The translations under genes were made by a program, and so were the position numbers. Shown one piece after another: positions 4,569-55,666 of a DNA stretch of 64,000 nucleotides (position 1 is its first letter; every line of letters starts with the position of its first letter). The DNA comes from Parcubacteria group bacterium GW2011_GWA2_47_26 (GTDB lineage Bacteria > Patescibacteriota > Patescibacteriia > GWA2-47-26): contig LCOG01000002.1 of the NCBI GenBank assembly GCA_001001705.1, positions 20,056 to 84,055 of the forward strand, read 5' to 3'. Under the pieces are notes generated by a model, which was given only the letters and a program-made list of their open reading frames with translations, was not told the origin of the DNA and made no database searches.

Positions 4569-5504
4569 ATGAATATAATTTTTGTCATAATACTTGGCCT
4601 TGTCGTGGGCAGTTTTTTGAATGCCTATATTTTTCGTTTGCATAGAAGTACAACTCTTAACCCTTCCCTGCATAACCCCCTCCAACTCCCCCTTATCTTA
4701 AGGGGGAGAGATCGATCACCCCCCCCTCTTAGGATAAGAGGGGGTGAGGGGGAGTTACGAAGTGTCTGGCGCGGCAGGTCATACTGTCCAAAATGTAAAA
4801 AACCCTTAGCCTGGTATGAACTGATTCCAGTTCTGTCGTTTATTTTACAGTTGCGCCGTTGTCGCGGCTGTAAGCAAAGGATTGATTGGCAGTACCCGGT
4901 GGTGGAGTTGAGTACGGCAGTTCTGTTTGTGCTGGCTTATCTAGCACAAAGAATTATGAATCAGGCCGTAATTCATGATTTCCTATTCCTGATTCAACAA
5001 CTGGTAGCCTGGTACTTGCTTTCCGTCCTTGTCATCCTTTTCGTTTTTGATCTCCGCTATGGCCTAGTGCCGGATAGAATGGTGTTGCCTGCGATTGTGA
5101 TAGCGTTTTTTAGCATGGTCATCCTAAATGCAGTGAAGGATCCCATGATTCCCGATATAGACGGGATTCTTCGCTTCGCTCAGAATGGCACAAACCTCTA
5201 CGTTCTCTTAGCCATCGCTGTCGGCGCCGGATTTTTTGCTTTACAATACTACGCTTCAAAAGGCCGCTGGCTTGGCGCTGGCGATATTCGTATTGGCGCT
5301 TTAATGGGAGCAATGTTGGGCTGGCCGCTGATTATTGAGGCACTGGTTCTATCCTACATGATCGGCGGAGTCGTTGGACTGCTATTGATTGCAACAGGTA
5401 AAAAGCGTTTTGGCCAAACTGTGCCTTTAGGAACATTTTTAACTCTGGGCACAGCAATAACTTTTTTATATGGCGAACAAATTTGGCATTGGTATTGGGG
5501 ATAA
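4569..5504 (+). CDS. pilD: Prepilin peptidase PilD (A24 family); carries an in-frame family E palindromic element
   Basis: CPKC...CRGC tetracysteine motif before multiple TM helices, A24 peptidase core; ORF track starts at 4467 but hydrophobic N-terminus MNIIFVIILGLVVGSF starts at ATG 4569. Confidence 0.8.
   Translation: MNIIFVIILGLVVGSFLNAYIFRLHRSTTLNPSLHNPLQLPLILRGRDRSPPPLRIRGGEGELRSVWRGRSYCPKCKKPLAWYELIPVLSFILQLRRCRGCKQRIDWQYPVVELSTAVLFVLAYLAQRIMNQAVIHDFLFLIQQLVAWYLLSVLVILFVFDLRYGLVPDRMVLPAIVIAFFSMVILNAVKDPMIPDIDGILRFAQNGTNLYVLLAIAVGAGFFALQYYASKGRWLGAGDIRIGALMGAMLGWPLIIEALVLSYMIGGVVGLLLIATGKKRFGQTVPLGTFLTLGTAITFLYGEQIWHWYWG
4671..4766. repeat. Family E element (two hairpin units) within pilD
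   Basis: CATAACCCCCTCCAACTCCCCCTTATCTTAAGGGGGAGAG...CCCCCCCTCTTAGGATAAGAGGGGGTGAGGGGGAGTTACGAAGTG. Confidence 0.8.
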
Positions 5505-6848: not shown

Positions 6849-7416
6849 AAAAGGATTCACTTTAATGGAGATGCTTGTGGCTTTGGCGATATTTTCTACG
6901 GTGGTGACGATCACTACGGACATCTTTTTTTCCTATCAACGCACCCAGCGCAAAACCGAGGAGCTGCAAAAAGTTGTCAGTACGGCGCGTTTTGTTTCTG
7001 AAGCCATCGTGCGCGAGGTTAAGGAAGGCACGATTGATTATGGATACACCAATTATGTACGTAGCGGTGATGCTCTTAGCAACCCCCAGACTGTTTTAGC
7101 GTTAAAAGACGCCGAAGGTCGCCAAGTAATATTCAGTCAATCAGGTCAGAATGGGTGTCCAGAAGGATCAGATCCATGTATTATTCTGACCCGCGATAGT
7201 GGGTCAGAAAGCATTACACCTAGAGGTGTGCGCGTGAATTCTTTGCAGTTTTATATCTCGCCAGCGCAAGACCCTTATAGTTTTGACATCGGACGCGGTG
7301 CTTTTATGAGTAATGCCCAGCCGCGCGTTACGGTTTTTATGTCGCTCATGGATAGTGAAAGACGCACGCAATACGATTTGCAAACTACAGTGGTAAGTCG
7401 GGCGTATAAACGGTGA
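6835..7416 (+). CDS. Pseudopilin (GspJ/PilW-like)
   Basis: MTGGKKG|FTLMEMLVALAIFSTVV prepilin motif. Confidence 0.7.
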   Translation: MTGGKKGFTLMEMLVALAIFSTVVTITTDIFFSYQRTQRKTEELQKVVSTARFVSEAIVREVKEGTIDYGYTNYVRSGDALSNPQTVLALKDAEGRQVIFSQSGQNGCPEGSDPCIILTRDSGSESITPRGVRVNSLQFYISPAQDPYSFDIGRGAFMSNAQPRVTVFMSLMDSERRTQYDLQTTVVSRAYKR

Positions 7417-8308: not shown

Positions 8309-10469
<2,161 letters not shown>

Positions 10470-10489: not shown

Positions 10490-12355
10490 GTGATACATAT
10501 TATGCTTTCATCAGTTGATGAAATAAAAATACGACTGGATATTGTTGATTTTATTTCGACGTATGTGCAGTTAAAAAGAGCAGGCGCCAATTTTAAGGCG
10601 CTTTGCCCTTTTCATACTGAAAAAACGCCATCATTCATGATCTCCAAGGCAAAGCAGATGTGGTACTGTTTTGGTTGTAATGAAGGCGGGGATATTTTTA
10701 AGTTTTTAATGAAGATGGAAGGATTGGATTTTCCCGAAGCCCTAAAAATTTTAGCGGATAAGGCCGGGGTGGAGTTGCCCAAATACGACAAGCGGCTTGA
10801 AAGTCAAAAAAATACTCTACTAGAAATTCTGCGGCTAGCAGTAGAATTTTATTCAAAACAGTTGCATGCTCCGGCAGGACAGTCGGCTTTGAATTATTTG
10901 CAAAGGCGCGGTTTATCCGAAAATGTGATCAATCAGTTTGCCTTAGGTTATGCGCCGGATTCTTGGGATGCTCTTACTAACACCTTGCGTGCGCGATTTA
11001 AACCTGAAGACATATTTGCAGCCGGCCTTGTTGTGAAGAAAAATAGGGACGTTTCTAATTTTGCAAAGCAAAATTTAGAGACGTCCCATTTTTCCTCGTA
11101 CTACGACCGTTTTCGTCATCGGATTATGTTTCCCATCCGTGATGTCAACGGCAATGCAGTGGGCTTTACAAGTCGGCTTTTGGACGAGAAACGCGCTGAA
11201 GGCAAGTATATTAATACCCCCGAAACCATGCTCTACAACAAAAGCCGCGTGCTTTATGGGTTGGATTTAGCGCGCCAAGCTATGCGCCAATTGAATTACG
11301 CCGTGATTGTAGAGGGCAATATGGACGTGATTGCCTGCCATCAGTTTGGCATGTCTAATGTGGTGGCCGCCTCCGGCACTGCCATGACCATCGATCATCT
11401 TAGATTGCTCAAACGCTATACAAATAATCTTGCCATTGCCTTTGATGCTGATCCGGCTGGCGTCAGTGCCGCGAAACGCGGTATTGATCTTGCTCTGCAA
11501 GAAGGAATGAGGGTCAAGATTATTACAATTCCCAAAGATTGCGGCAAGGATCCCGATGAATGTATTCGTAAGAATAAAAAGGCTTGGGCCATTGCAGTTG
11601 GTGCGGCTCGCGAAGTCATGGATTATTATTTGGAGCGTGCAACTCGCAATTTTGATATAAAAACCGCAAAGGGTAAATCCGATTTTGCCAATCTCCTAAT
11701 GACCGAAATTAAAAAATTGCCGGATTTGATAGAACAAGATTTTTGGTTGAAAAAAGTTGCCGAGGCCTTGCGCGTTGATGATAAGTTATTGCGGGAGCAG
11801 ATGGCAAGAGTTGGTAACGCCCCTCAACCTCCTCTTAAGTTAAGAAAGGGAGTTACGCGTGAGGTGCCGGCAGAGACTAATATGCGCCCGAGGGCCGAGC
11901 TACTTTCGGAACGACTGCTTGCCCTTTTTCTGGCCGTGCCGCAATACGCGGAAAGCATCATTGAAGCTGTGCTTCCGGAGATGTTTTGTCCCGCGGGCAA
12001 TCAAGACCTTTACACCCAACTTGTGCAATGTTATACTGCTTATAATTCACAAGGCTCCGCTTCGGCGGGGGCTGATTTCAGCCAATTTTGGCATAACTGG
12101 TGCGTAAATCACGCACCAGAACTTTCATCCACAGCCGCTATTCTTGAACTTTATAAAGACAAGGAGTTTGCGGGTTGGGACGACATCCAGTTAAGGCGGG
12201 AAAAAAATTTTTTAACTAAAGAAATTCGGCGCGAATATTTACACAAGCGCCGTTTTGAGCTTACCGAAGCAATGCGCCAAGCCGAGAAAGAGGATGATAA
12301 AGCGCAGGTGGCTGAACTTACCCGCGAATTTGAGGCGCTTGCGGCGCAAGAATAG
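10490..12355 (+). CDS. dnaG: DNA primase DnaG (in-frame family F and E elements)
   Basis: CPFHTEKTPSF...CFGC zinc-binding domain, TOPRIM region. Confidence 0.9.
   Translation: MIHIMLSSVDEIKIRLDIVDFISTYVQLKRAGANFKALCPFHTEKTPSFMISKAKQMWYCFGCNEGGDIFKFLMKMEGLDFPEALKILADKAGVELPKYDKRLESQKNTLLEILRLAVEFYSKQLHAPAGQSALNYLQRRGLSENVINQFALGYAPDSWDALTNTLRARFKPEDIFAAGLVVKKNRDVSNFAKQNLETSHFSSYYDRFRHRIMFPIRDVNGNAVGFTSRLLDEKRAEGKYINTPETMLYNKSRVLYGLDLARQAMRQLNYAVIVEGNMDVIACHQFGMSNVVAASGTAMTIDHLRLLKRYTNNLAIAFDADPAGVSAAKRGIDLALQEGMRVKIITIPKDCGKDPDECIRKNKKAWAIAVGAAREVMDYYLERATRNFDIKTAKGKSDFANLLMTEIKKLPDLIEQDFWLKKVAEALRVDDKLLREQMARVGNAPQPPLKLRKGVTREVPAETNMRPRAELLSERLLALFLAVPQYAESIIEAVLPEMFCPAGNQDLYTQLVQCYTAYNSQGSASAGADFSQFWHNWCVNHAPELSSTAAILELYKDKEFAGWDDIQLRREKNFLTKEIRREYLHKRRFELTEAMRQAEKEDDKAQVAELTREFEALAAQE
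11041..11095. repeat. Family F hairpin element within dnaG
   Basis: AAATAGGGACGTTTCTAATTTTGCAAAGCAAAATTTAGAGACGTCCCATTTTTCC. Confidence 0.75.
11820..11859. repeat. Family E single unit (degenerate) within dnaG
   Basis: CCCCTCAACCTCCTCTTAAGTTAAGAAAGGGAGTTACGCGTG. Confidence 0.55.
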
Positions 12356-13662: not shown

Positions 13663-14217
13663 ATGACTATTACAATGCATCAGTTAGAAAGACTGTTTCT
13701 TTATGTTGGTTTATTTTTTTTAATTACGCCCACATACGCGCAATCTCCAACCGTCTCCATTATTTCTCCAGCTCCTGGCGAGGTTGTTTATGGCGATAGT
13801 ATCACGGCGAATGTAAGGATGCCGGATAATTTTATATTGGGGCAAGATGGTTATTTGTATTTTTGGCTTGATGCGCCGCTTGAGCGCGACAGCTCCAATG
13901 CCGTGATTGTTCCAGAGGCACAACATACTTTTGCGCAAGTTACTTCGGGCTTGCATACGCTTTGGGTTGAGCTTGTAAATCAAAACTATGCTTCTCTTTC
14001 TCCCAAAGTTGAAGCAATGGTGGAGTTTGAAACTGTGGTAGAGGGGCTTGCTGGTCCAGGCGGCGGTCCCGGGCCAGTCCCGCCCCAAACAAGTGGCGGT
14101 TTTTTATCAGTCTCTAGCAATACCGTGGCCGTAATTATTTTGATAGGGGTTGCGATTGTAGTTTTATGGTATTTGTTTGGGCGACATAAAAAGGTGTCGC
14201 CTACTAAGAAAACTTGA
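13663..14217 (+). CDS. Hypothetical cell-surface protein (signal peptide, Pro/Gly linker, C-terminal TM anchor with basic tail)
   Basis: N-terminal signal LFLYVGLFFLITPTYAQS; C-terminal GPGGGPGPVPPQTSGG + TM + GRHKK. Confidence 0.5.
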   Translation: MTITMHQLERLFLYVGLFFLITPTYAQSPTVSIISPAPGEVVYGDSITANVRMPDNFILGQDGYLYFWLDAPLERDSSNAVIVPEAQHTFAQVTSGLHTLWVELVNQNYASLSPKVEAMVEFETVVEGLAGPGGGPGPVPPQTSGGFLSVSSNTVAVIILIGVAIVVLWYLFGRHKKVSPTKKT

Positions 14218-16340
14218 GCGCAGAAGTATTGTGCATGGCAATTAATTATCAACGCGAACTAAACGCCGAGCAGTTGCGTGTAGTCAATGACGGAAACGGT
14301 CCTTGTTTAGTTTTAGCCGGAGCTGGAACAGGCAAGACGCGGACCATTGTGTACCGCGTTGCTTATTTATTGGAACAAGGCATTGATCCGGGCAAGATTT
14401 TGTTGGTTACTTTTACCAATAAAGCCAGCCGCGAGATGTTAAGAAGAGTGGAAATTTTGCTTGGCCACACGCCCGAAGGTCTTTGGGGCGGAACTTTTCA
14501 TCATGTGGGCCATGCAATTTTGCGCCGTTATGGATCGCGCATCGGACTCGCGTCCGGTTTTACTATTTTAGATCAGGATGACAGCATGGAATTGCTAAAA
14601 TCAACTATGGCAGAGCAGGGCCTGTCCACTAAAAAAGATGATAAATCTTTTCTAAAACCCGAAGTATTAGATAACTTAATTAGCTTTTCTGTAAATAGCG
14701 CGCGCGCATTGCCAGAGCTTGTTGAGGAATGGATACCTAAACATGCACATCTAACGCCGGAAATTTTACGCCTCGCAAGCGCCTACGAGCAAAAAAAGCG
14801 CGAACGTAATGTTGTAAGTTTTGATGATTTGCTTTATTTCTGGCTATGCCTTTTGCGTGAGAGGCCCGAGGTGCGCGAGAGTCTAGGCGGTAAGTTTGAT
14901 TATATATTGATTGATGAATATCAGGATACAAATCGTTTGCAAGGTATGATCGTTGAAGAACTTGCTCGTCAAAGTGAAGGCGGTGGGGCTTGTGGTAAAA
15001 ACGTTCTTGTGGTTGGCGATGATGCCCAATCAATCTACGCCTTCCGTGCCGCGACCGTTGAAAATATTATGCGTTTTCCCGAGGTATTTCCCGGCGCAAA
15101 AATTTTCCGTCTTGAACAGAATTATCGCTCTACGCAAGCAATTCTTGATCTGGCGAACGCATGCATCGCTTGCAATCGCCGGCAATTTGAAAAGGAACTT
15201 AAAAGTGCTTGTCATCCTGAGCGAAGCGAAGGATCCCGGCCTAATCGAGAATCACGGGATTCTTCGGCCTCTGGCCTCAGAATGACAGACTATGAGGGCA
15301 CTAGGCCGGAGCTTATTGGGTGCGCTGACGCTACCCAAGAGGCTAGATTTATTGCGGGCAAGGTTTTGGAGTTTCACGACGAAGGCGAATCTCTCCTTGC
15401 AAGCGCTGTACTCTTCCGTGCGGCCTATCAAGCCATGCAGCTTGAACTAGAACTTCAAAAGCGAGGGGTGCCCTATGTTGTTCGGGGCGGTATTCGTTTT
15501 TTTGAACAAGCGCATATCAAAGACGTGGTGGCGTATCTAAAAGTGGTAGCGAATCCAACTGACGAGATTGCTTGGCAGCGTGTGCTAAAAATGGAAGAGG
15601 GAATTGGTGCAAAAACTGCCGCGGTGCTTGCGCAACGCATGATTCATAACTCCCCCCAACCCTCTCTTACCTTAAGAGGTGGTGATATAGTGAATATTCC
15701 TACCCAAAGAGCGCGGGGAAGTGAGGAGGGGTTACAAAAAGTTCTTGCCCGTATTGAAAAATTAAAATCTTTAGATAAGGTCTATAGAATGATTGATTAT
15801 TTATTAGAAGCATTTTACGAAAATTATGCCGAAGCAGTTTTTGAAAACGCGCGAGAGCGGCTTGAAGATTTAAGACAACTCGCGCTTTTTGCCAAAGAGT
15901 ACCAAGAGCTAGAACAATTTTTAGCTGATGCAACCCTTTCAGAAGGCTTTCGCGGGGAAAGAAAAGGGAACGTTTCTAATTTTGTCGAGCAAAATTTAGA
16001 GACGCTCCCTTTTCTTAATGAAGATCAAGAGCATCTAGTGCTCTCTACGATTCATCAAGCTAAAGGCTTGGAGTGGAAAAATGTTTTTGTGGTGGGTCTG
16101 ATTGATGGTCAATTTCCGCATTACAAATCTCACGGTAGCCGCGCAGAGCTCGAAGAAGAACGGCGTCTTTTTTATGTGGCAGTGACGCGCGCCAAAGAGC
16201 AGCTCTTTCTAACCTATCCCGTAACCAGTATGGGCTCGCTTGGCACAGCCGTGCACCAGCCGTCTTTATTTGTCCGCGAACTCAACCCGCATTTGTTTAA
16301 GACCATGCTGGATGACGAAGAAGTCGTCGTTGAAATATAA
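14214..16340 (+). CDS. uvrD: ATP-dependent DNA helicase UvrD/PcrA family (in-frame family A, E and F elements)
   Basis: Walker A AGAGTGKT, helicase motifs through VTRAKEQLFL. Confidence 0.9.
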   Translation: MSAEVLCMAINYQRELNAEQLRVVNDGNGPCLVLAGAGTGKTRTIVYRVAYLLEQGIDPGKILLVTFTNKASREMLRRVEILLGHTPEGLWGGTFHHVGHAILRRYGSRIGLASGFTILDQDDSMELLKSTMAEQGLSTKKDDKSFLKPEVLDNLISFSVNSARALPELVEEWIPKHAHLTPEILRLASAYEQKKRERNVVSFDDLLYFWLCLLRERPEVRESLGGKFDYILIDEYQDTNRLQGMIVEELARQSEGGGACGKNVLVVGDDAQSIYAFRAATVENIMRFPEVFPGAKIFRLEQNYRSTQAILDLANACIACNRRQFEKELKSACHPERSEGSRPNRESRDSSASGLRMTDYEGTRPELIGCADATQEARFIAGKVLEFHDEGESLLASAVLFRAAYQAMQLELELQKRGVPYVVRGGIRFFEQAHIKDVVAYLKVVANPTDEIAWQRVLKMEEGIGAKTAAVLAQRMIHNSPQPSLTLRGGDIVNIPTQRARGSEEGLQKVLARIEKLKSLDKVYRMIDYLLEAFYENYAEAVFENARERLEDLRQLALFAKEYQELEQFLADATLSEGFRGERKGNVSNFVEQNLETLPFLNEDQEHLVLSTIHQAKGLEWKNVFVVGLIDGQFPHYKSHGSRAELEEERRLFYVAVTRAKEQLFLTYPVTSMGSLGTAVHQPSLFVRELNPHLFKTMLDDEEVVVEI
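15211..15287. repeat. Family A element within uvrD (encodes HPERSEGS...)
   Basis: GTCATCCTGAGCGAAGCGAAGGATCCC...GGGATTCTTCGGCCTCTGGCCTCAGAATGAC. Confidence 0.8.
15647..15692. repeat. Family E single unit within uvrD
   Basis: CATAACTCCCCCCAACCCTCTCTTACCTTAAGAGGTGGTGATATAGTG. Confidence 0.6.
15958..16016. repeat. Family F element within uvrD
   Basis: GGAAAGAAAAGGGAACGTTTCTAATTTTGTCGAGCAAAATTTAGAGACGCTCCCTTTTCT. Confidence 0.75.
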
Positions 16341-16794: not shown

Positions 16795-16803
16795 AGGTAT
16801 TCG

Positions 16804-16923
16804 TCCCGTTAGAAGCCGCGGTCGCGATACATTGGAGAGCTAAATATTATGCAAAAGGTCTATATTATAACAACAAACATTAACCAGCAGATCGGGAAGA
16901 CCGCGACCTGCTTCTAACGGGAT
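16804..16923. repeat. Family B element between the ArsR-family gene and nifS, ending on nifS ATG
   Basis: TCCCGTTAGAAGCCGCGGTCGCG ... GAAGACCGCGACCTGCTTCTAACGGGAT|G. Confidence 0.8.
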
Positions 16924-18331
16924 GAACGAGAAACGCACAGTATATCTTGATCATGCCGCGGCCACACCTCTTGATCCGCAAGTTAAAGAGGCTATGTTGC
17001 CATATCTGGGCGAACAATATGGCAACCCCTCGGCAATCTATGCGCCGGGGCGCATTGCTCGAGAAGCTTTGGATAATGCGCGCGAGACAGTAGCACAGGC
17101 TTTAAATTGCACCGCCGCCGAAATTATGTTTACCGGTAGCGGCACCGAGTCTGCTAATCTGGCCATTTTCGGCGTCGCACGAGGGTATCGTCGTGACCAA
17201 GTCACTGCCGCAGGCGCAACCCGTGACTTGGTCACAAAAGGCCACATCATCACCACCAACATTGAACATCATGCTGTTTTAAATTCCTGCAAAGCCCTTC
17301 AAAACGACGGTTTTGAAGTTACTTATTTGAAAGTAGATCATGACGGGCTTGTAACAGCCGAGCAATTTAAAGCCGCTATTCGGCCGGACACGATTTTAAT
17401 TTCCATCATGTACGCCAATAACGAGATTGGCACAATTGAGCCGATACATGAACTCACGCGCGCAATGCAAGAGCGCAAAAAAGAACTCGGACGCAAGCCA
17501 AATGACCCCCCATTTTTTCATACTGATGCCTGTCAGGCCGCGGGATATTTAGATATTGATGTGAAGAGCCTCGGGGTGGACCCCGTTAGAGGCAGGTCGC
17601 CCCAAGGTGACCGTAGCACTGCCTCTAGCGGGGTGGCCTCTAGCGGGGTGGATTTAATGACAATCAATGGAAGCAAGATTTATGGGCCCAAAGGCACTGG
17701 TGCTCTTTTTGTGCGCCGTGGCTTGAAACTGCAACCGCTAATTTATGGGGGCGGACAAGAAATGAAATTGCGCTCTGGAACAGAGAATGTGGCTGGTATT
17801 GTGGGGTTGGCCACGGCGCTTAAAATTGCGACGCAACTACGCGATAAAGAGGGGCAGCGCTTAATTGCACTGCGTGATCAACTGCTTACTGGCATTATGG
17901 ATCGCATTCCAAAGGTGGTATTAAATGGACACGCCACCAAACGTTTGCCGAACAATGTTGATGTGTCAATTTTAGACATTGAAGGCGAAGCCATGCTTTT
18001 GTATCTGGATGAGCATGGTATATATGTATCAACCGGCAGCGCTTGTGATTCCCAAGCTCTGGATCCCTCGCATGTGATTTTGGCTCTAGGCAAGCCCTAT
18101 GAATTCGCGCACGGCAGTATCCGGTTTACTTTGGGGCGCGCGACTAGCGCAGCAGATATTGATTATGTATTGGATGTCCTGTCGCAGATTGTAAGCACCC
18201 TGCGCAAAATATCGCCGGTGCGCATAGATGTGAATGCAACCGGTATAACTGCTAAGACCGCGTTTGTTGGGGACGGTCTGCCGCATTTCGTAAAACAGCA
18301 GAGTAATAGAGGAAAAAAGGACCGCCTCTAA
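16922..18331 (+). CDS. nifS: Cysteine desulfurase NifS/IscS (class V aminotransferase) with in-frame family D and C elements; stop codon lies inside a family F element
   Basis: PLP-binding region, TGSGTESANLAI, active-site Cys loop STGSACDS. Confidence 0.9.
   Translation: MNEKRTVYLDHAAATPLDPQVKEAMLPYLGEQYGNPSAIYAPGRIAREALDNARETVAQALNCTAAEIMFTGSGTESANLAIFGVARGYRRDQVTAAGATRDLVTKGHIITTNIEHHAVLNSCKALQNDGFEVTYLKVDHDGLVTAEQFKAAIRPDTILISIMYANNEIGTIEPIHELTRAMQERKKELGRKPNDPPFFHTDACQAAGYLDIDVKSLGVDPVRGRSPQGDRSTASSGVASSGVDLMTINGSKIYGPKGTGALFVRRGLKLQPLIYGGGQEMKLRSGTENVAGIVGLATALKIATQLRDKEGQRLIALRDQLLTGIMDRIPKVVLNGHATKRLPNNVDVSILDIEGEAMLLYLDEHGIYVSTGSACDSQALDPSHVILALGKPYEFAHGSIRFTLGRATSAADIDYVLDVLSQIVSTLRKISPVRIDVNATGITAKTAFVGDGLPHFVKQQSNRGKKDRL
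17192..17235. repeat. Family D element (GTGACCAAGTCAC doublet) within nifS
   Basis: GTGACCAAGTCACTGCCGCAGGCGCAACCCGTGACTTGGTCAC. Confidence 0.8.
17575..17657. repeat. Family C element within nifS (encodes VDPVRGRSPQGDRSTASSGVA)
   Basis: GTGGACCCCGTTAGAGGCAGGTCGCCCCAAGGTGACCGTAGCACTGCCTCTAGCGGGGTGGCC with duplicated terminal arm. Confidence 0.8.
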
Positions 18332-18369
18332 TTTTGCAGAGCAAAATTTAGAAGTGGTCCCTTTTTCCT
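18313..18369. repeat. Family F element containing the nifS stop codon and the iscU ORF 5' end
   Basis: GAAAAAAGGACCGCCTCTAATTTTGCAGAGCAAAATTTAGAAGTGGTCCCTTTTTCC. Confidence 0.8.
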
Positions 18370-19058
18370 TGAATCTGCCTAATCTGTTTATGATTATCAC
18401 ACCATCCGACCTCAAAACCTCTGATGTAGTGCATCCCACGACTGGCCAAAAGTGGGTCTATTCCGATGTTGCACGCGATCACTTTTTTAATCCGCGCAAT
18501 CTAATGCTCAAAGATCCTAAAGACGGCGAATATGACGCCGTGGGCGTAGTTGGGAGTCCGGCCTGCGGTGATGTCATGACCATGTGGCTTAAAATTGACA
18601 AAGCAGACGAGCGCATCTACAAGTTGAAATGGCGGACATTTGGCTGCGGCAGTGCGATTGCGGCAACTTCCATGTTTTCCGCCATGGTTATGGAAAATGG
18701 AGGCAGGACAATTGACGAAGCGCTTAAAATCACTCCTCAAGATATAACCGAGCGTCTTGGCGGTTTACCCGGCCGCAAAATTCATTGTTCTGTGTTGGCG
18801 GATAAGGCCTTTCGAAAAGCTATCAACAATTATTTTCGTACAACTCACCAACATCAGCGCATTGTTGTGGAGGGCGCAAAGGTGATTGATACGGTATTGA
18901 ATATAACTGACCGCGATATTGAAGAGGCTGTGCTTGAAGGCGCGACTACCCTTGAGGAAGTGCAAAATAAACTCAAGGTTGGCGTGGGCTCGCCAGAGTC
19001 AATCCCGGAGCTTGAGCAGTTAATAAGATTTTATAGCGAAAAATATTATGACGGATAG
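18354..19058 (+). CDS. iscU: IscU/NifU-type Fe-S cluster scaffold with C-terminal extension (start uncertain, possibly 18390)
   Basis: YSDVARDHFFNPRN, three conserved Cys (GSPACGD, FGCGSAIA, HCSVLA). Confidence 0.8.
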   Translation: MVPFSLNLPNLFMIITPSDLKTSDVVHPTTGQKWVYSDVARDHFFNPRNLMLKDPKDGEYDAVGVVGSPACGDVMTMWLKIDKADERIYKLKWRTFGCGSAIAATSMFSAMVMENGGRTIDEALKITPQDITERLGGLPGRKIHCSVLADKAFRKAINNYFRTTHQHQRIVVEGAKVIDTVLNITDRDIEEAVLEGATTLEEVQNKLKVGVGSPESIPELEQLIRFYSEKYYDG

Positions 19059-19633: not shown

Positions 19634-20605
19634 ATGACAATAGGGGAGGCTTTGAAGTGGGGCATAAAAAAACTCACTGGCTCTGGGGTGGACCCCGTTA
19701 GAGGCAGGTCGCCTCAAGGTGACCGTAGCACCGCCTTTGGCGGGGCGGCCTCTAACGGGGTAGATTCTCCTGCGCTGGATGCGGAGGTTATTTTAGCGCA
19801 TGTGCTCGGTGTTCCCCGCGCCGAGCTCTATATCCACCCCTTGACCACTCTACTACCGGCAGAAGCGGCGACATATAAAATTTTGATCAAGCGGCGTTTT
19901 AAGCGCGAGCCCGTCGCCTATATTACGGGTCATAAAGAATTTTACGGCATGGATTTCATCGTGGACAAATCTACGCTTATTCCTCGACCGGAAACCGAAA
20001 TGCTCGTGGAGGAAGCGCTAAAGGCGGTTAAGGCTAGGAACACAAAGACATTGTGTGTTGTTGATGTTGGCACTGGTTCGGGTTGTATTATTGTATCCTT
20101 AACTAAAATATTAAACCAAATAAGCCGCCACAAGACCTTGCATTTTTTTGCCACAGAGATCTCACCGCAAGCTCTTAAAATAGCCAAGCTCAACGCCAAA
20201 CGCCATAGTCTTGCTGATAAAATAGTTTTTAGAAAAGGCTATTTGCTCAAACCGATCTTATCCAATCTAGAAAAAACGGTACCGCAATCAAGATTATTGA
20301 TTACGGCAAACTTGCCCTATTTGCCTACAGCCGAGTGGCGGCGCGCCATGGAAGACGTGCATTATGAACCGCGCCAAGCTCTGGATGGCGGTAAAGACGG
20401 ACTAGAATACTACCGGCATTTGTTTGAGCAATTAAAATCCTGGCGCGGCATTAAAAAATTTGCTAACGTGGCCGTGCTCGCTGAAATTGATCCGCATCAG
20501 GTTAATGAATTTACAACTCTGATAAAATCATTTTTCTCGCGAGCCAGTTTATCAATCAAAAAAGATCTGGCCAGCCTTGATCGAGTTGCGATCGCGGTAC
20601 TATGA
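19634..20605 (+). CDS. prmC: Release-factor glutamine methyltransferase PrmC/HemK (in-frame family C element)
   Basis: VVDVGTGSGCI SAM motif, NLPYLP (NPPY-type) motif. Confidence 0.8.
   Translation: MTIGEALKWGIKKLTGSGVDPVRGRSPQGDRSTAFGGAASNGVDSPALDAEVILAHVLGVPRAELYIHPLTTLLPAEAATYKILIKRRFKREPVAYITGHKEFYGMDFIVDKSTLIPRPETEMLVEEALKAVKARNTKTLCVVDVGTGSGCIIVSLTKILNQISRHKTLHFFATEISPQALKIAKLNAKRHSLADKIVFRKGYLLKPILSNLEKTVPQSRLLITANLPYLPTAEWRRAMEDVHYEPRQALDGGKDGLEYYRHLFEQLKSWRGIKKFANVAVLAEIDPHQVNEFTTLIKSFFSRASLSIKKDLASLDRVAIAVL
19687..19762. repeat. Family C element within prmC
   Basis: GGTGGACCCCGTTAGAGGCAGGTCGCCTCAAGGTGACCGTAGCACCGCCTTTGGCGGGGCGGCCTCTAACGGGGTAGA. Confidence 0.8.
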
Positions 20606-25472: not shown

Positions 25473-26807
25473 GTGAACACTATGCAAGATGAAATTTTAG
25501 TTAAAGGCACAGATGGGAAGTGGTATCTTCTGCAAGGGGAGGAGTTGGTGCCGTATGGGGCAGGTACGCAGGGACCAGATAAGCAGGCGGCAGGCGTGAA
25601 ACAAGAGTTGCCTAAAGGGGTGACAGAAGAGAGGCATAAAAAATTGGAAAAGGTGACCAAAGCGGTAGAGGAGCCACATGTGGCAAAAGAAATTTTCTTG
25701 CCAGCCGTAGCTACTCCGCCCCTTCCGGCTGTTTCTGCTCCCGCGCTTCGTGACTTGGTCACTGCCGCAGGCGCAACACGTGACCAAGTCACAGCTCCGG
25801 CCTATATTCCGCCGGAGTTGCCCGAATTAGTCGCGCCTGCTTTGGGGCCGGTAACACACGAAGGACATCCTTTATATAAGGAATTGCAGGAGCTTGTGGA
25901 TCAGGTGGTAAGTGAGAGCGCCGAAATAATTCGCGCTCAAGCGCCAGCTTGGGACGAAATTTTGCAAAAACGTTTCCGGTTCGTGATCTCGGCACGTTTG
26001 CGGGATATGCGGGACGCGGCAGAAACCAAAGCCTTGATATTGCGTGATCAGAAGATTGGTGGTTTAGGTTTGCGCGAGGCAGACGCGCAAAAGGTCACGG
26101 AGTTTACCGAGCGCGTTTTTCAAGAATTTCAAAAAAAGTGGCAAGAGTTTGAGGCAAAGCGCATTGAAGAATGGAAGCGCAAGAAGCGCGAAGAAGCGGC
26201 TCATAGCGAAGAAGTTTGCAAGAAAAAAGAAGAGCAGGAGATGGAGGAGAGATACGCCCGCCTTACAGGCGAGGTTGCAAAAGTGGCAGAGGTGGCAAAT
26301 GAGCCAAAGATTAAGGTACCCAAACCTCAAACCTCAAACCTCAAACCTCAAACAGCCCCAAATATTAAAGCTCAAAAGCCAAGGATAATAGAGCAATCCA
26401 GAACATCTGTCACTTCTGAAACATTTGCAACATCTGTGACTTTGCCGCGAAGCAGCAAAGTCACAGATGTCCGTACCCCGCCGAAACTCTTGGGACCGGT
26501 GGAGGAACTGCAAAGCATAAGCCCCCAAGATTTTAGACGGCTGGGCGCGCCTGGCGAGGCAACTGCAAAAATCAAGGCCAAAGTAGATTTTTTGGCGCAA
26601 GAATCATTTACAAAATACAGAAATGGAATCAAGGCTTGGCAAAGTTCGCCACTGCACAGACTGTATTTATTCATTAGCGGAATATCCTTACGGGAACGCA
26701 AGAGTATTGAGCAAGTTATAGGTGATTTACAGGTGCAAAACAAAGACACACTCACACCTGACGAATTTCATGCTATAATGGAGTTGAATAAACAATTGAG
26801 GTTTTAA
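25473..26807 (+). CDS. Hypothetical K/E-rich coiled-coil protein with PQTSNLK repeats
   Basis: Long ORF; contains an in-frame family D element and a 7-nt tandem repeat. Confidence 0.55.
   Translation: MNTMQDEILVKGTDGKWYLLQGEELVPYGAGTQGPDKQAAGVKQELPKGVTEERHKKLEKVTKAVEEPHVAKEIFLPAVATPPLPAVSAPALRDLVTAAGATRDQVTAPAYIPPELPELVAPALGPVTHEGHPLYKELQELVDQVVSESAEIIRAQAPAWDEILQKRFRFVISARLRDMRDAAETKALILRDQKIGGLGLREADAQKVTEFTERVFQEFQKKWQEFEAKRIEEWKRKKREEAAHSEEVCKKKEEQEMEERYARLTGEVAKVAEVANEPKIKVPKPQTSNLKPQTAPNIKAQKPRIIEQSRTSVTSETFATSVTLPRSSKVTDVRTPPKLLGPVEELQSISPQDFRRLGAPGEATAKIKAKVDFLAQESFTKYRNGIKAWQSSPLHRLYLFISGISLRERKSIEQVIGDLQVQNKDTLTPDEFHAIMELNKQLRF
25750..25791. repeat. Family D element within the 25473 gene
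   Basis: GTGACTTGGTCACTGCCGCAGGCGCAACACGTGACCAAGTCAC. Confidence 0.8.
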
Positions 26808-26816
26808 GGTATGCAA

Positions 26817-27020
26817 TCCCGTTAGAAGCCGCGGTCGTTGGTTTGTGGAGTAGATAATATTCATATGCAGAAAGGTCAAATGGTTTTAATAAATAACCTC
26901 GCAGGGCGGGCGACCGCGACCTGTCCCGTTAGAAGTGTTGTTCTAACGGGTAATCAATCAGGAGTCTGGGGAGTGTTCAGTATTATGGGCACTTCTAACG
27001 GGACCTGCTTCTAACGGGAT
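26817..27020. repeat. Family B element (expanded/composite) ending on the ATG of the PrgI-like gene
   Basis: ATCCCGTTAGAAGCCGCGGTCG ... GGCGACCGCGACCTGTCCCGTTAGAAGTGTTGTTCTAACGGG ... ACTTCTAACGGGACCTGCTTCTAACGGGAT|G. Confidence 0.75.
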
Positions 27021-31733: not shown

Positions 31734-32243
31734 GTGGTATACTTTAATACTATGCCAGAGACAGAAACTAAACAATACGGTAAAGAACTTTTATCCTGGG
31801 AAGCGGATGAATACAGTCAAGGACACAAGGGTCTTTTGTGGTATTTTATGGCGACCATCGCGGCCGTTGCTTTTCTTATCTGGGCAGTGGCCACTCGCAA
31901 TTTTTTATTCGCTTTCATCGTAATCATGTTCGCGGTAATTACCGCAACCCATGCCCTGCGTCCGCCAATGCGCTATCGTATCGGCCTTTTTGAGCGCGGA
32001 TTAGTTTTTGGAACCAGGCTCTATCTATGGAAAGATATAAAAAACTTCTGGATTGTCTACGAACCGCCAGAAGTAAAAACGCTTTACTTTGATTTTGGGG
32101 GCTTGCGTCCGCGTTTGCCTGTGCCACTTATAGACACTGACCCCAATCGCGTACGCAAAACTTTACAGGAATTTTTGATGGAAGACGTTGAACGGATCGA
32201 AGAACCTTTGTCTGATTGGGTTGCGCGGGTGCTGAAGTTATAA
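31734..32243 (+). CDS. Hypothetical membrane protein (two TM helices)
   Basis: ORF with hydrophobic segments; no motif recognised. Confidence 0.5.
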   Translation: MVYFNTMPETETKQYGKELLSWEADEYSQGHKGLLWYFMATIAAVAFLIWAVATRNFLFAFIVIMFAVITATHALRPPMRYRIGLFERGLVFGTRLYLWKDIKNFWIVYEPPEVKTLYFDFGGLRPRLPVPLIDTDPNRVRKTLQEFLMEDVERIEEPLSDWVARVLKL

Positions 32244-32408
32244 TGGGACTGTTGCTAAATACGCTTTCGTAACGAAAGGTAAGAATTTTGAGCGAGACGA
32301 AGTGAAACATTTGAAGCATATACGGCGTATATGTTGAGATCCGCAAGCTCGCATTCTATCCGTTGAACTACGGGCGCAAAAGGCGCTGGATTCTTTATTG
32401 TATTCTAC

Positions 32409-34697
32409 ATGATCCGCTATAACTTATCAAGTCCAGTAAGTGCACTATCGCATATTGGCCGCACCGTGGAGACTCAACTGCGACACCTAGGAGTTCTCAC
32501 CATACAGGATCTCCTTTTTTATTTTCCGGTTCGCTACGACGATTTGCGCAATATCACCGAGATTAAAGATTTAAAAATCGGCGAAAGGGCAGTAGTGCGT
32601 GGAAAAATTGAGCTTATTCAAAGCCGCCGCAGCAAATATAGAAAGAAACTCCTTACCGAGGCCATTGTCTCTGATGCGACGGGCAGTTTAAAAATACTTT
32701 GGTTTGGCCAGCCTTGGCTAATTAAAATGTTTAAAACCGGCGATGAGCTGTATTTGGTTGGCGAAGTTAAAGACGATGGCTCCGGCGCGTATATGTCCTC
32801 GCCAAGCTATGAGCGCGCAAGCGGGCACGCGACAATTCATACGGGCCGCATTGTGCCAGTTTACGCTTTGACCGAAAAGCTTTCTCAAAAACAAGTGCGT
32901 TTTTTAATGAGTCGCGCTTTTCCGCTCGCTTCGAGCATAGTTGATTGGCTGTCTCAAGATTTGAGGACAAGATACAAATTATTGGATTTAAAACGCGCTA
33001 TTTCTTTTGTGCATTTTCCGCCGGATAATCAAAAAATGGAAGCGGCCCGGCGGCGTTTGAAATTTGATGAATTGCTGCGCTTGCAGATTTTTGCCGCTAA
33101 AGTAAAACAGGAACTCAAAAAATTACCCGCCCCGAAAGCGGTATTTAATGAGAAGGCGACAAAGCAATTTGTACAAGGCTTGCCTTTTGAGTTAACCGAG
33201 GCGCAACGCAAAGCGGCCTGGGAAATTGTCAAAGATATTAGTCGGCCGCGCCCAATGAATCGTTTGCTGGAGGGCGATGTTGGATCGGGAAAGACTGTCG
33301 TGGTTGCGATTGCGGCATTGAATGCGGTTGGTGTTTGTGACCATGTCACCGCGGCTAGTGACCTGGTCACAAACAAAGGTCAGGTGGCCATTATGGCGCC
33401 GACCGAAATTTTGGCGCGTCAACATTTCAAAACATTTTCAAAATTACTTGGACCCCATGGTGTGCAAGTAGAGTTACGCACCAGCAGTGAAAAAGGTAAA
33501 AAGGGGATTATAGACAGCAATGTAGTTGTGGGAACACATGCTTTAATACAAGACAGTGTAAAGTTCAAAGATTTGGTGCTCGCGGTTGTTGATGAACAGC
33601 ACCGTTTTGGCGTGCGTCAACGGCAAGCGCTCAAGGATAAGCGCGAGGATGGAAAAATGCCCCATCTGCTTACTTTGACCGCCACGCCAATCCCGCGTAG
33701 TTTGGCTTTAGTATTTTATGGCGATCTTGATCTCTCCGTGCTTAATGAAATGCCCAAGGGGCGGCAGAGAATTGAAACCGTGTTGGTAAGTAACGCTTCC
33801 CAACCCCCTCCTCATAAACCCACCCACCCTCCCCTTAAGTTAAGGGGAGGAGGCGAAAAAGGGACCGCCTCTAATTTTGCAAAGCAAAACTTAGAAGTGG
33901 TCCCTTTTTCGCGGGAACAGGCCTATCAATTTATCCGTACTGAAGTTGCCGCCGGCCACCAAGTCTTTTGGACATGCCCGATTATTGATCCTTCCGACAC
34001 GCTTGGTGTAAGAGCCGCGACCGAAGTATTTGAGCATTTGCGCACCGAAATTTTTTCTGATCTGCGCATTGGACTCTTACACGGGCGCATGAAGTCAAAA
34101 GAAAGAGAAAAAGTGATGGAAGCGTTTGTAGGCCCATCTTGTCATCATGAGCGTAGCGAAGGATCTCGGGATTCTTCGCCTGCGGTTCAGAATGACAGAG
34201 GACACACGATTGATATTCTCGTAGCCACGCCGGTTATTGAAGTTGGTATTGATGTGCCTAATGCTACAGTCATGGTTATTGAAGGAGCACAGCGTTTTGG
34301 CTTAGCCCAGCTTCATCAATTTCGCGGACGCGTTGGCCGGGGCGAGGCGAAATCGTATTGTTTGTTGATGGTGGAAGAAAAAGGGACCGCCTCTAATTTT
34401 GCTGCGCAAAATTTAGAAGTGGTCCCTTTTTCTGCGCGTATCAAGGCATTTTTAGAGTGCGACAATGGTTTTGAACTCGCCGAGCGCGATTTGACGCTTC
34501 GCGGTCCTGGCGATACTTATGGCATTGCCCAATCCGGTTTTCCGGAATTCAAAATCGCGAGTTTCGCGGATGTTGAAATTGCCAAAGAGGCCAAAGAAGC
34601 GGCGGAGGTGATTTTAACGCGCGATCCGGAACTTACGAACTATTCCGAGCTCAAACAGGCGATACTTGATAAAGAAGGCCGGACGCATTTAGAATAA
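32409..34697 (+). CDS. recG: ATP-dependent DNA helicase RecG carrying five in-frame palindromic elements
   Basis: Wedge domain, Walker A GDVGSGKT, DEQH box, helicase C motifs QFRGRVGR. Confidence 0.9.
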   Translation: MIRYNLSSPVSALSHIGRTVETQLRHLGVLTIQDLLFYFPVRYDDLRNITEIKDLKIGERAVVRGKIELIQSRRSKYRKKLLTEAIVSDATGSLKILWFGQPWLIKMFKTGDELYLVGEVKDDGSGAYMSSPSYERASGHATIHTGRIVPVYALTEKLSQKQVRFLMSRAFPLASSIVDWLSQDLRTRYKLLDLKRAISFVHFPPDNQKMEAARRRLKFDELLRLQIFAAKVKQELKKLPAPKAVFNEKATKQFVQGLPFELTEAQRKAAWEIVKDISRPRPMNRLLEGDVGSGKTVVVAIAALNAVGVCDHVTAASDLVTNKGQVAIMAPTEILARQHFKTFSKLLGPHGVQVELRTSSEKGKKGIIDSNVVVGTHALIQDSVKFKDLVLAVVDEQHRFGVRQRQALKDKREDGKMPHLLTLTATPIPRSLALVFYGDLDLSVLNEMPKGRQRIETVLVSNASQPPPHKPTHPPLKLRGGGEKGTASNFAKQNLEVVPFSREQAYQFIRTEVAAGHQVFWTCPIIDPSDTLGVRAATEVFEHLRTEIFSDLRIGLLHGRMKSKEREKVMEAFVGPSCHHERSEGSRDSSPAVQNDRGHTIDILVATPVIEVGIDVPNATVMVIEGAQRFGLAQLHQFRGRVGRGEAKSYCLLMVEEKGTASNFAAQNLEVVPFSARIKAFLECDNGFELAERDLTLRGPGDTYGIAQSGFPEFKIASFADVEIAKEAKEAAEVILTRDPELTNYSELKQAILDKEGRTHLE
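33337..33370. repeat. Family D short element within recG
   Basis: GTGACCATGTCACCGCGGCTAGTGACCTGGTCAC. Confidence 0.65.
33793..33854. repeat. Family E unit within recG, directly abutting a family F element
   Basis: CCCAACCCCCTCCTCATAAACCCACCCACCCTCCCCTTAAGTTAAGGGGAGGAGGCG. Confidence 0.65.
33855..33910. repeat. Family F element within recG (copy 1)
   Basis: GAAAAAGGGACCGCCTCTAATTTTGCAAAGCAAAACTTAGAAGTGGTCCCTTTTTC. Confidence 0.8.
34141..34197. repeat. Family A element (short form) within recG
   Basis: GTCATCATGAGCGTAGCGAAGGATCTCGGGATTCTTCGCCTGCGGTTCAGAATGAC. Confidence 0.8.
34376..34432. repeat. Family F element within recG (copy 2)
   Basis: GAAAAAGGGACCGCCTCTAATTTTGCTGCGCAAAATTTAGAAGTGGTCCCTTTTTCT. 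Confidence 0.8.
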
Positions 34698-34698
34698 G

Positions 34699-34775
34699 GA
34701 AAAGAGAACGCCTCTAGTAAAAAAGAGAACGCCTCTAATTTTGCTGCGCAAAATTTAGAAGTGGTCCCTTTTTCT
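34699..34775. repeat. Family F element with partial left-arm duplication, just after recG stop
   Basis: AAAAGAGAACGCCTCTAGTAAAAAAGAGAACGCCTCTAATTTTGCTGCGCAAAATTTAGAAGTGGTCCCTTTTTC. Confidence 0.75.
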
Positions 34776-34873
34776 GCCCAGCCGGTATATATGCCCCGTG
34801 TCAAATCATCTAATCATGACACCGAACCGTACACTTGGGTATACGGAGAGTGCCACAATATGCTTTCCAAAAC

Positions 34874-34909
34874 GTCCCGTGTTTGGCTCGATCGAGCCAA
34901 ACACGGGAC
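34874..34909. repeat. 36-bp perfect palindrome GTCCCGTGTTTGGCTCGATCGAGCCAAACACGGGAC
   Basis: Direct reading; followed by tandem GAAACGTCATAGG x2 at 34922..34950. Confidence 0.7.
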
Positions 34910-35254
34910 GAGTAGCGTTAAGGAAACGTCATAGGGAAACGTCATAGGGAACTAGGGTATAATTTTAGATGATTTAATTTATGACAATTTAATTTGTGCA
35001 CTTGACGCAGGATGGCCTGCTATTGTAGTATGTCAAAATTACCGCGTTGGTCAGGGGTTTTAAGTAAATGAGCCCCCTCACTAGCGCGGTAATAAATTAG
35101 CGTAAACACAGTGAACACATGGGCTGCCCACCCAAGCCGGGTGTTGTGCCAACCTTTTGATGGAGGAGCGGGGCGAATTAGCTGACACGATCCGCCACTA
35201 CGCGGGGGGTCACGAAGTACAAGCAACCTCGGACCGAAGAGGGGATCTGCAACA

Positions 35255-40140: not shown

Positions 40141-40228
40141 TCCCCCTTAGGTTAAGGGGGAGTGAAAGGGGGTTACGAGACGCTCATAACCCTCCCCAGC
40201 CCTCCCTTAACTTAAGGGAGGGAGAAAG
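40141..40228. repeat. Family E double unit, intergenic upstream of htpX
   Basis: TCCCCCTTAGGTTAAGGGGGAGTGAAAGGGGGTTACGAG...CATAACCCTCCCCAGCCCTCCCTTAACTTAAGGGAGGGAG. Confidence 0.7.
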
Positions 40229-45576: not shown

Positions 45577-45654
45577 TGTCATTCTGAGCGAAGCGAAGAA
45601 TCCCGTGGAAAATGAACGGGATCCTTCACTACGCTACGCTCCGTTCAGGATGAC
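45577..45654. repeat. Family A element, intergenic rseP-pheS
   Basis: GTCATTCTGAGCGAAGCGAAGAATCCCGTGG...GGGATCCTTCACTACGCTACGCTCCGTTCAGGATGAC. Confidence 0.8.
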
Positions 45655-52396: not shown

Positions 52397-52440
52397 AGTT
52401 ATCCACATGAGATATTGCGCAAAATCGTGGGGGGGGGGGG
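52397..52440 (+). repeat. 44-bp direct repeat AGTTATCCACATGAGATATTGCGCAAAATCGTG(G)12, copy 1, abutting the clp-like stop
   Basis: Identical to copy at 53669 including 12-G homopolymer. Confidence 0.8.
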
Positions 52441-52872: not shown

Positions 52873-52900
52873 AAAACAAAAGGGCAGATTAAGCCTTGAG

Positions 52901-53668: not shown

Positions 53669-53712
53669 AGTTATCCACATGAGATATTGCGCAAAATCGT
53701 GGGGGGGGGGGG
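53669..53712 (+). repeat. 44-bp direct repeat with 12-G tract, copy 2
   Basis: Identical to 52397..52440. Confidence 0.8.
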
Positions 53713-55480: not shown

Positions 55481-55595
55481 ATGGAAAAAATTATATTCGG
55501 CAACAGTCCCATTAAGACAAGACGAAGCAAGCTCTAAAACTCTCGTTCCGAAATTGACACGATCGTGTCAATTTCGGGATAGCCTGCGGGACCGA

Positions 55596-55660
55596 AAAAG
55601 AGAACACTTCTAAATTTTGCAAAGCAAAATTAGAGGCGTTCTCTTTTTCGGCGTTCTCTT
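55596..55660. repeat. Family F element with right-arm duplication, intergenic
   Basis: GAAAAAGAGAACACTTCTAAATTTTGCAAAGCAAAATTAGAGGCGTTCTCTTTTTCGGCGTTCTCTTTTTCC. Confidence 0.7.
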
Positions 55661-55666
55661 TTTCCA

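Follow-up and report, generated by a model that had tools for sequence, protein, structure and literature searches.

The question raised by the junction of nifS and iscU in the DNA examined here is what ends the nifS reading frame. The DNA is a 64,000-nt stretch (hereafter the window) of contig LCOG01000002.1 from Parcubacteria group bacterium GW2011_GWA2_47_26, and an earlier note on it had proposed that the stop codon of nifS is supplied by one of seven copies of a hairpin-forming palindrome, here called family F. The stop codon now in use is element sequence, whatever the junction looked like before. As to the origin of this arrangement, we consider it probable that F is a lineage-specific selfish palindromic repeat, similar to the Rickettsia palindromic elements (RPEs) and to SPRITE, and that its nifS copy entered near the end of the gene in a frame that contains a stop. 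The features of the junction are as follows.

16922..18331, + strand: nifS, class V aminotransferase / cysteine desulfurase, 469 aa
18313..18366, + strand: F copy at the nifS-iscU junction, a 54-nt palindrome
18380..18382, + strand: in-frame TAA past F, the inferred old nifS stop, 7 nt ahead of ATG 18390
18390..19058, + strand: iscU (NifU_N plus BFD-like domain), from its most likely start, ATG 18390

The nifS open reading frame (ORF) ends GGA AAA AAG GAC CGC CTC TAA, and the TAA (18329-18331) lies within the left arm of F, 16 nt into the 54-nt unit. The protein ends ...PHF VKQQSNRG KKDRL, the codons of KKDRL (18314-18328) being element sequence. That F supplies both the stop and these last residues, as had been claimed, is borne out, because the left arm reads K-K-D-R-L-TAA and no orthologue ends in this way. 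Orthologous NifS proteins with the same last residues in organisms lacking the repeat were looked for, and none of 119 orthologues ends K/R-D/E-R/H-L; the F peptide was likewise absent from all 119, the best of which are 62-69 % identical. What the orthologues have after a conserved G-x-G-x-P-H-F/W is a variable, lysine-rich or basic tail of 2-18 residues, and in a short-tailed subgroup the conserved part ends before that motif. Three unrelated genes in related contigs stop at the same left-arm TAA in the same frame as nifS: where NifS ends KKDRL, a XerC/D-like tyrosine recombinase ends RKREHL, an HTH_17 protein GKRERL and a DoxX protein EKRDRL. The junction is 100 % identical in three independent assemblies (an 84-kb ENA scaffold and two JGI Rifle-aquifer contigs) and hence is not an assembly artefact. 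The whole NifS protein is 100 % identical to the public entry 'Cysteine desulfurase [Parcubacteria group bacterium GW2011_GWC2_45_7]'.

Five NifS orthologues from other members of the Candidate Phyla Radiation (CPR), P0015, P0018, P0021, P0027 and P0089, have tails that resemble one another (...KMQN, ...KTQN or MQNAERKMQN), and judging from these sequences other repeats may have remodelled this C-terminus elsewhere.

The F unit is 54 nt long, or 18 codons, and consists of A5, a 20-nt left arm, a 3-nt loop, a 21-nt right arm and T5. A perfect palindrome would be 53 nt, and the additional nucleotide is a T bulged in the right arm. The unit starts with (G)AAAAAGGGAC at its 5' end, and its core dyad is TCTAATTTTGC-NNN-GCAAAATTTAGA, searched for as TCTAATTTTGNNNNGCAAAAYTTAGA; the loop is bounded by GC/GC, and its triplet is hypervariable among copies. 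The arms come in two sub-types, the first (T)AGGGACGTT.../...AGACGTCCC(A) and the second GGGACCGCC or GAGAACGCC.../...AGTGGTCCC or AGTGTTCTC. Twenty-seven distinct copies were gathered from the window and from related metagenome contigs, and about eight diverged ones were added by a profile search of loci. The copies are 85-100 % alike. With one exception, described below, the RNA of either strand folds at -24 to -39 kcal/mol (z -6 to -8.7). In the outer stem, 92 % of cells are paired as against 42-57 % with slid partners, and pairing is kept despite two-sided changes in 10 pairs. The additional profile-found copies have small core changes, one has a second hairpin in its loop and one relative has a different core.

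At the nifS junction, F with its closing GG/CC occupies 18311-18368, made up of the left arm (18311-18337, including GG), the loop (18338-18340) and the right arm (18341-18368, including CC). The additional T at 18347 (alignment column 41) forms the bulge and a G to A change from the consensus at 18318 creates an A.C mismatch; the fold is -32.2 kcal/mol on the plus strand and -35.4 on the minus strand, with z about -7.7. That same G to A change makes 18313-18319 read A AAA AAG, a dnaX-type -1 slippery heptamer in the zero frame of nifS just before the hairpin, which the remaining three stop-donating copies do not have. A -1 shift there would yield ...RGKKGPPLILQSKI and then stop at TAG 18347-18349. 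Fusion of NifS to IscU by frameshifting was considered and rejected, as the -1 frame ends at that TAG and IscU is in the +1 frame.

Each orientation of F offers one open frame and two stop frames, the stops being TAA or TAG within TCTAA/TTAGA motifs. In the sense orientation the open frame reads as KGTASNFAKQNLEVVPF, a second ends at the left-arm TAA after K-K/R-D/E-R/H-L, and a third ends at the right-arm TAG. How the copies are distributed among these frames is first seen in the window, where the six copies other than that at nifS are the following.

11040..11093, + strand: F in dnaG (10490-12355), in frame, peptide KNRDVSNFAKQNLETSHF
15961..16014, + strand: F in uvrD (14214-16340), in frame, peptide RKGNVSNFVEQNLETLPF
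33856..33909, + strand: F copy 1 in recG (32409-34697), in frame, peptide KGTASNFAKQNLEVVPF
34378..34431, + strand: F copy 2 in recG, in frame, peptide KGTASNFAAQNLEVVPF
34698..34773, + strand: intergenic F with partial-arm duplication, full copy 34720-34773, 22 nt past the recG stop
55595..55664, - strand: intergenic F with arm duplication, full copy 55595-55648, duplicated 15-nt arm 55650-55664

The earlier count of seven holds exactly. The same set was returned by the core pattern, by a looser pattern of the arms and by an nhmmer profile built from the 27 copies, and with the core pattern and nhmmer nothing else in the window rose above noise. The consensus proposed in the earlier note matches three places in the window at no more than three mismatches where none is expected, and differs from 18314-18366 at two positions, with no match expected in shuffled sequence. 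The translated ORFs confirm the four in-frame copies (dnaG, uvrD and two in recG), which share one frame and follow K-G/N-T/R/N-A/D/V-(V)-S-N-F-A/V-x-Q-N-L-E-V/T-x-x-F. Their peptides are near-identical, as had been said, and not identical, reading ...SNFAKQNLETSHF in dnaG, ...SNFVEQNLETLPF in uvrD, and ...SNFAKQNLEVVPF and ...SNFAAQNLEVVPF in recG.

Compared with solved structures, the dnaG copy adds loop residues relative to the Aquifex primase and the uvrD copy sits in a poorly aligned linker. The first recG copy, directly 3' of a copy of another repeat family (33817-33852), falls in an additional segment of 37 residues, located precisely where the two helicase domains of the Thermotoga maritima RecG structure meet. 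The second also provides extra loop residues, and its loop has 18 residues between anchors in the window as against 3-5 in the shortest orthologues. RecG loops are too variable among relatives to fix the length of an insertion, and a clean insertion of 54 nt is neither proved nor excluded by the alignment. The F peptide was found in none of 120 RecG orthologues (at most 65 % identical, bar the window organism's own partial entry, P0121). At the same loops, relatives hold other repeat-derived segments (PPLKLRGG-like and ERSEGSR-like), and thus these loops are insertion hot spots within the clade.

Among all 27 copies, 14 overlap ORFs (ten well inside real genes and four across gene ends) and 13 are intergenic. 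All ten gene-internal copies are in an open frame. The nine in sense lie in the genes for DnaG, UvrD, RecG (two copies), ThiI, an AddB/UvrD-like helicase-nuclease (two copies), an FG-GAP protein of 683 aa and a GT2-like ORF, and the single antisense one, in the gene for an amino-acid-kinase-fold protein, is read as KKWDTSKFCGAKLEASLF. All four gene-end copies use the same stop frame, and none of the 27 interrupts a gene in a stop frame. Seven of the intergenic copies lie no more than 30 nt past a stop codon. With respect to the local gene, 22 copies are in sense and five antisense (two-sided binomial probability about 0.0015, on our own classification of orientation), a bias due mostly to copies in overlap with coding sequence (13:1). 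Insertion and subsequent purifying selection acting on translation would be expected to leave such a pattern.

The family is narrowly distributed. In 185,579 species-representative genomes (GTDB) the core pattern had no real match, the single hit being a chance one without arms, and in IMG/VR it had none. JGI metagenome or bin contigs do carry it, in 26 stretches; the identifiers of all of these are of the Rifle type, and their only overlap with the window is through repeats. A synthetic query of three F peptide units against a protein database gave one candidate and no match, and this artificial query is uninformative. The narrow distribution, together with the 85-100 % likeness of the copies, indicates that F is a recent as well as a narrow family.

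What the junction looked like before F arrived can be reconstructed with some assurance. Removing 18313-18366 in silico leaves the frame unchanged, and NifS then ends ...PHFVKQQSNRGLESA at the TAA of 18380-18382; the empty site would have read ...CAGAGTAATAGAGG joined directly to CCTTGAATCTGCCTAATCTG.... In the closest long-tailed orthologue (P0002, on L031) NifS ends ...PHFVVEEKATKQLGN, 12 residues past PHF, and iscU follows 8 nt on. The NifS tail with F deleted has the same length, 12 aa after PHF. Gaps between nifS and iscU in orthologous loci are 8 nt (L031), -4 nt (L034) and 19 nt (L036). This layout lends moderate support to entry of F four codons ahead of the old stop, and on these sequences the exact junction given here is rather more likely than not to be right.

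F would then be a non-coding selfish repeat that multiplied recently in one Rifle-aquifer Parcubacteria population. Selection would retain copies inside genes only in open frames, where they would be translated as an 18-residue loop, and would otherwise retain intergenic copies, mostly just past stops, and stop-frame copies only at the extreme ends of genes. The nifS copy would have entered about four codons ahead of the original stop in the KKDRL-TAA frame and replaced a dispensable tail (reconstructed as LESA before the stop), shifting the stop 51 nt upstream of its inferred old position. The insertion alters five C-terminal residues of NifS. On this account the donation of a stop codon is a minor and expected by-product of invasion by an RPE-like repeat.

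Several points weigh against parts of this account. An in-frame stop within five codons is expected by chance in roughly one-quarter of cases, and the nearest relatives are only 62-69 % identical at the protein level and provide no empty site, so the insertion point and the old stop are reconstructions. The search pattern used to collect the copies had a fixed core, which makes any invariance of the inner core a circular result, and the covariation of the stem could reflect template-switch correction of quasi-palindromes instead of selection. For target-site duplications of 3-5 nt, no excess was found at any of 100 boundary combinations. No transposase Pfam family, and no Y1 transposase or RAYT gene, is present among the called genes of the window, and the mobility of F is deduced from its copy number and varied contexts only.

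The copies themselves bear on how F may move. The bases just outside the A5 and T5 runs vary from copy to copy yet are complementary over 2-3 nt (AGG/CCT, GAG/CTC, AAG/CTT, GTGG/CCAC). At each of the first two flank positions Watson-Crick pairs are found in 18 of the 27 copies, where 25 % is expected. Variable, complementary flanks without a direct target duplication are unusual for a transposed element. F might have inserted into the middle of short palindromic targets, which at nifS would be AGGCCT, entered between AGG and CCT. Another possible explanation is template-switch correction of quasi-palindromes, which would also explain the covariation and the variable loop without selection on RNA structure.

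A further trace is the duplication of one arm that the earlier note had reported for two copies, which is indeed present, at 34698-34717 and 55650-55664. The copy at 34720 is preceded by the repeated left-arm fragment, and its arms are chimeric (GAGAAC left, GGTCCC right), so that its hairpin is weak at -21 kcal/mol, the exception mentioned above. In its loop, its right arm and 4 flanking nt it equals the copy at 34378, 342 nt upstream, which suggests local recombination or conversion. The copy at 55595 lies 18 nt past the stop of a minus-strand gene (55667-57967), and its duplicated arm is the left arm in the orientation of the element. A partial left arm stands 5' of a full copy in three cases (34698, 55650-55664 and a nested case in L018), and in sequence terms these are signs that the process was directional, whether it was slippage or the entry of one F into another.

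Elsewhere, on L005 (the same as L023), two copies in the same orientation (7280-7333 and 8404-8457) bracket the gene for the XerC/D-like tyrosine recombinase, one lying 9 nt upstream of its start and the other giving its stop. This could be chance clustering or a hint at mobilisation.

The earlier note had also placed the beginning of the annotated iscU ORF within the right arm of F. This is correct, since the longest ORF and the public gene calls start at GTG 18354, which is in the right arm, but that GTG is probably not where iscU really starts, the most likely start being ATG 18390. IscU orthologues start 5, 13 and 16 residues ahead of a conserved D/E-V-V/T-N/H motif, and the distance is 10 residues from ATG 18390 and 22 from GTG 18354. 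The GTG is, moreover, buried in a stem of -32 kcal/mol, and nearly all genes in the window have an ATG start behind an A/U-rich leader with no Shine-Dalgarno sequence. The GTG start is probably a gene-calling artefact that arises because the iscU frame coincides with the open frame of F, and the ORF consequently spans the whole element. The C-terminus of NifS and the called N-terminus of IscU in public records are repeat products, and repeat-aware calling would put the iscU start at 18390.

Whether the hairpin also affects expression of the two genes bears on the strongest of the alternatives. With F in place the spacer between nifS and iscU measures 58 nt, as against the 7 nt inferred for the earlier state, and a strong hairpin and U-run now stand 24 nt ahead of ATG 18390. 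Possible consequences, judged from this layout, include partial intrinsic termination or attenuation, protection of the mRNA 3' end and loss of translational coupling. F has a terminator-like shape on both strands, with a 27-bp stem whose inner half is AU-rich, and many of its copies are inside ORFs. By analogy, its shape and its preference for gene 3' ends would be those of a bidirectional intrinsic terminator, which makes some termination, attenuation or 3' protection plausible, as proposed for SPRITE. A simple consensus terminator scan did not flag F copies because the bulge breaks the stem rule of the scanner.

On these grounds F might be a bidirectional terminator or attenuator that serves the host, with the nifS-iscU copy setting the ratio of NifS to IscU transcripts or stabilising the 3' end of nifS and with the in-gene copies accidental; the stop within the stem would then tie formation of the hairpin to ribosome traffic. 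The hairpin of -24 to -39 kcal/mol set between A5 and T5 on both strands would suit such a role, as would the position of seven of the 13 intergenic copies at most 30 nt past a stop, with four more copies overlapping one, and terminator-like mobile repeats (SPRITE) are known (PMC10969869, PMC3184786). However, ten copies, T-run included, are intact within essential genes, a divergent region has a copy 9 nt ahead of a gene start, the 27-bp stem is much longer than those of usual terminators, and orthologous nifS-iscU junctions, with gaps of -4 to 19 nt, have no hairpin. We consider a host-serving role unlikely as the explanation of the family, and a selfish repeat accounts better for these copies.

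Inside an ORF, a trailing ribosome is expected to block the formation of an intragenic terminator hairpin, and a ribosome stopped at 18329-18331 would cover the left arm of F. A hairpin so near the nifS stop could disturb termination of translation, by analogy with REPs; Liang, Rudd & Deutscher reportedly found in 2015 that REPs within 15 nt of a stop lower translation via ribosome stalling and tmRNA. A bolder proposal, doubtful and a little less likely again than a host-serving terminator, is that F copies are mobile bidirectional terminators gated by translation and, linked to this, that they move by an undescribed route without target-site duplication into palindromic centres such as that between AGG and CCT. 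Were this so, transcription of dnaG, uvrD, recG and others would be conditional on their own translation, and transcription of iscU would depend on translation of nifS, coupling the Fe-S scaffold to translation of the desulfurase.

It could also be supposed that the nifS stop is native and that F is a conserved motif (an operator, an uptake sequence or a recombination site, for example of Xer type) that evolved in place. The core TCTAATTTTGC-NNN-GCAAAATTTAGA does look like a dyad binding site, and a XerC/D-like recombinase gene lies between two F copies. Set against this, more than 27 unrelated loci share a 54-nt unit at 85-100 % identity and the TAA falls 16 nt into it, the unit is missing from all NifS and RecG orthologues examined, and it appears as an additional loop within conserved domains, which together make evolution in place highly improbable. 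Least probable of all, if by little, is that in-gene copies act as a mini-intron or hairpin-excision element, being cut out of the RNA or bypassed, and that the encoded peptides and KKDRL are never made as read: F is a compact stable hairpin and CPR bacteria are known for insertions in their rRNA genes, yet frame and orientation would then be irrelevant, whereas all ten internal copies are in the two open frames of six, the length is exactly 3n and stop-frame copies occur only at extreme 3' gene ends, a frame pattern that argues against removal, and an Rfam scan of the window at the gathering threshold returned three tRNAs only, with no F family and no intron or ribozyme match at F. An inserted selfish repeat, filtered by selection on translation, is the reading retained here.

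F is not the only repeat family in the window, whose gene content is otherwise that of ordinary CPR housekeeping: type IV pilus genes, ligA, dnaG, rpoD, uvrD, an HTH regulator, nifS, iscU, a peroxiredoxin gene, prmC, genes resembling those of type IV secretion systems, recG, ribosomal protein genes and others. There are three insertions in nifS, and four in recG, from three families. The two further insertions in nifS belong to other families, are in frame and are missing from all aligned NifS orthologues. One (at about 17191-17236) is a GTGACCAAGTCAC-type palindrome read as RDQVTAAGATRDLVT, and the other (17573-17654) is a repeat of 82 nt that matches a copy in prmC at 91 % identity and is read as VDPVRGRSPQGDRSTASSGVASSGV. 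A palindromic family with eight copies, CCCCTTAAGTTAAGGGG, gives in-frame PPLKLRGG-like peptides in dnaG, uvrD and recG, and peptides of this sort are found in related CPR genomes too, at the same loops of RecG and NifS. In uvrD and recG the in-frame reading of a GTCATCCTGAGCGAAGCGAAGGATCC...GGGATTCTTCGCTTCGCTCAGAATGAC family is CHPERSEGSR...SS..RMT; this family is also present in XerC-like and helicase genes of related contigs and appears to be far more widespread in CPR relatives than F. The coordinates of these families are listed below.

17191-17236, 17573-17654, 19685-19766 (prmC), 25748-25793 and 47782-47827: families of the two further nifS insertions
4675-4746, 11817-11852, 15649-15684, 33817-33852, 40189-40224, 43948-43983 and 46517-46552: CCCCTTAAGTTAAGGGG family
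5117-5190, 15210-15265, 34141-34170, 45577-45632, 48210-48277 and 55407-55480: GTCATCCTGAGCGAAGCGAAGGATCC...GGGATTCTTCGCTTCGCTCAGAATGAC family

The 343-nt convergent intergenic region at 55324-55666, which includes the minus-strand F copy, holds four different hairpin repeats.

About 55345-55372: terminator of the classic kind
55407-55480: GTCATCCTGAGCG family
About 55549-55577: palindrome
55595..55664, - strand: F, as given above

Repeated sequence was also seen upstream of genes. The regions 16803-16926 and 34797-34935 recur on related contigs (L022 1739-1861 and L013 4032-4170, respectively), gcttctaacggg directly before the ATG is common to nifS and the gene at 27019 (16895-16921 and 26992-27018), and a 100-nt block upstream of recG (32241-32340) is 100 % identical to L014 12628-12727. 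These repeated upstream regions suggest, from sequence, shared promoter or leader modules. Finally, a 44-nt exact direct repeat ending in 12 G (52397-52440 and 53669-53712, 1272 nt apart) surrounds genes at 52480-53641, and a tandem repeat with a 27-nt period lies within 52537-52659.

Taken together, the housekeeping genes of a CPR bacterium have been colonised in frame by several short palindromic repeat families, and what has been described for Rickettsia extends to another, unrelated group of bacteria with small genomes and a probable dependence on hosts. The F copies provide a natural test of the tolerance of proteins for 18-residue loop insertions and a manageable system in which to ask whether hairpins of terminator shape are silent when they lie inside ORFs.

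It remains to place F among known systems. REPs and BIMEs are, like F, short imperfect palindromes at gene 3' ends, where they affect mRNA stability and termination (PMC3733652). Unlike REP/REPIN-RAYT systems, in which a palindrome of 20-40 bp carries a conserved GTAG or CGTC at its 5' end, F has no GTAG/CGTC head, is not confined to extragenic positions (14 of 27 copies overlap ORFs), forms no doublets and has no RAYT gene in the window. MITE-type repeats (ERIC/RU, Correia and the BRE of Bordetella), as treated in section 15 of one review (Delihas 2011, PMC3184786), resemble F in that a repeat extends or replaces the 3' end of a gene or sits in frame. However, in those elements inverted repeats at the two ends enclose a non-palindromic body and target-site duplications are usual, whereas F is an inverted repeat throughout and lacks a 3-5 nt duplication, its flanks instead being complementary to each other for 2-3 nt. 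MITE-type elements have their inverted repeats in common with an autonomous insertion sequence, and for F no transposase Pfam family was found among the called genes of the window.

SPRITE is a mobile small repeat of about 105 nt, mostly intergenic, with a terminator-like fold and a 3'-end bias, according to PMC3184786 and PMC10969869. F shares the fold, which is like that of an intrinsic terminator, and the bias towards gene 3' ends, but is half the size and has more than one-third of its copies inside ORFs. The same sources report that pneumococcal repeats extend or alter ORF ends. In-frame repeats inside genes (RPE, BRE and pneumococcal) and repeats that replace ORF 3' ends have thus both been described (section 15 of PMC3184786; PMC10969869). 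In the literature covered, which is incomplete and hence weak evidence of novelty, no report of such in-frame palindromic repeats in CPR/Patescibacteria was found.

The closest parallel is with the RPEs, which are about 100-150 nt long and are translated as additional peptide (Ogata et al. 2000, as summarised in PMC10969869 and PMC3184786). As in Rickettsia, the elements are dispersed hairpin-forming palindromes in a small-genome bacterium, found in frame in unrelated housekeeping genes at sites that the fold tolerates, with no evident transposase. The stable dispersed hairpin is seen in F at -24 to -39 kcal/mol over 27 copies, and the in-frame insertion into unrelated genes in its ten internal copies, translation of which is deduced from the frame bias. 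F differs in being 54 nt long, about half the size of the smallest RPEs, palindromic throughout, flanked by terminator-like A5/T5 runs, resident in a CPR/Parcubacteria host and common just past stops. It lies outside RPE-1 to RPE-10 by length and lineage, not by direct sequence comparison. F thus works like an RPE and is not a member of that group; it is a new family, and the donation of a stop codon by a palindromic repeat, as at nifS, is an event of a known kind, as in Rickettsia.

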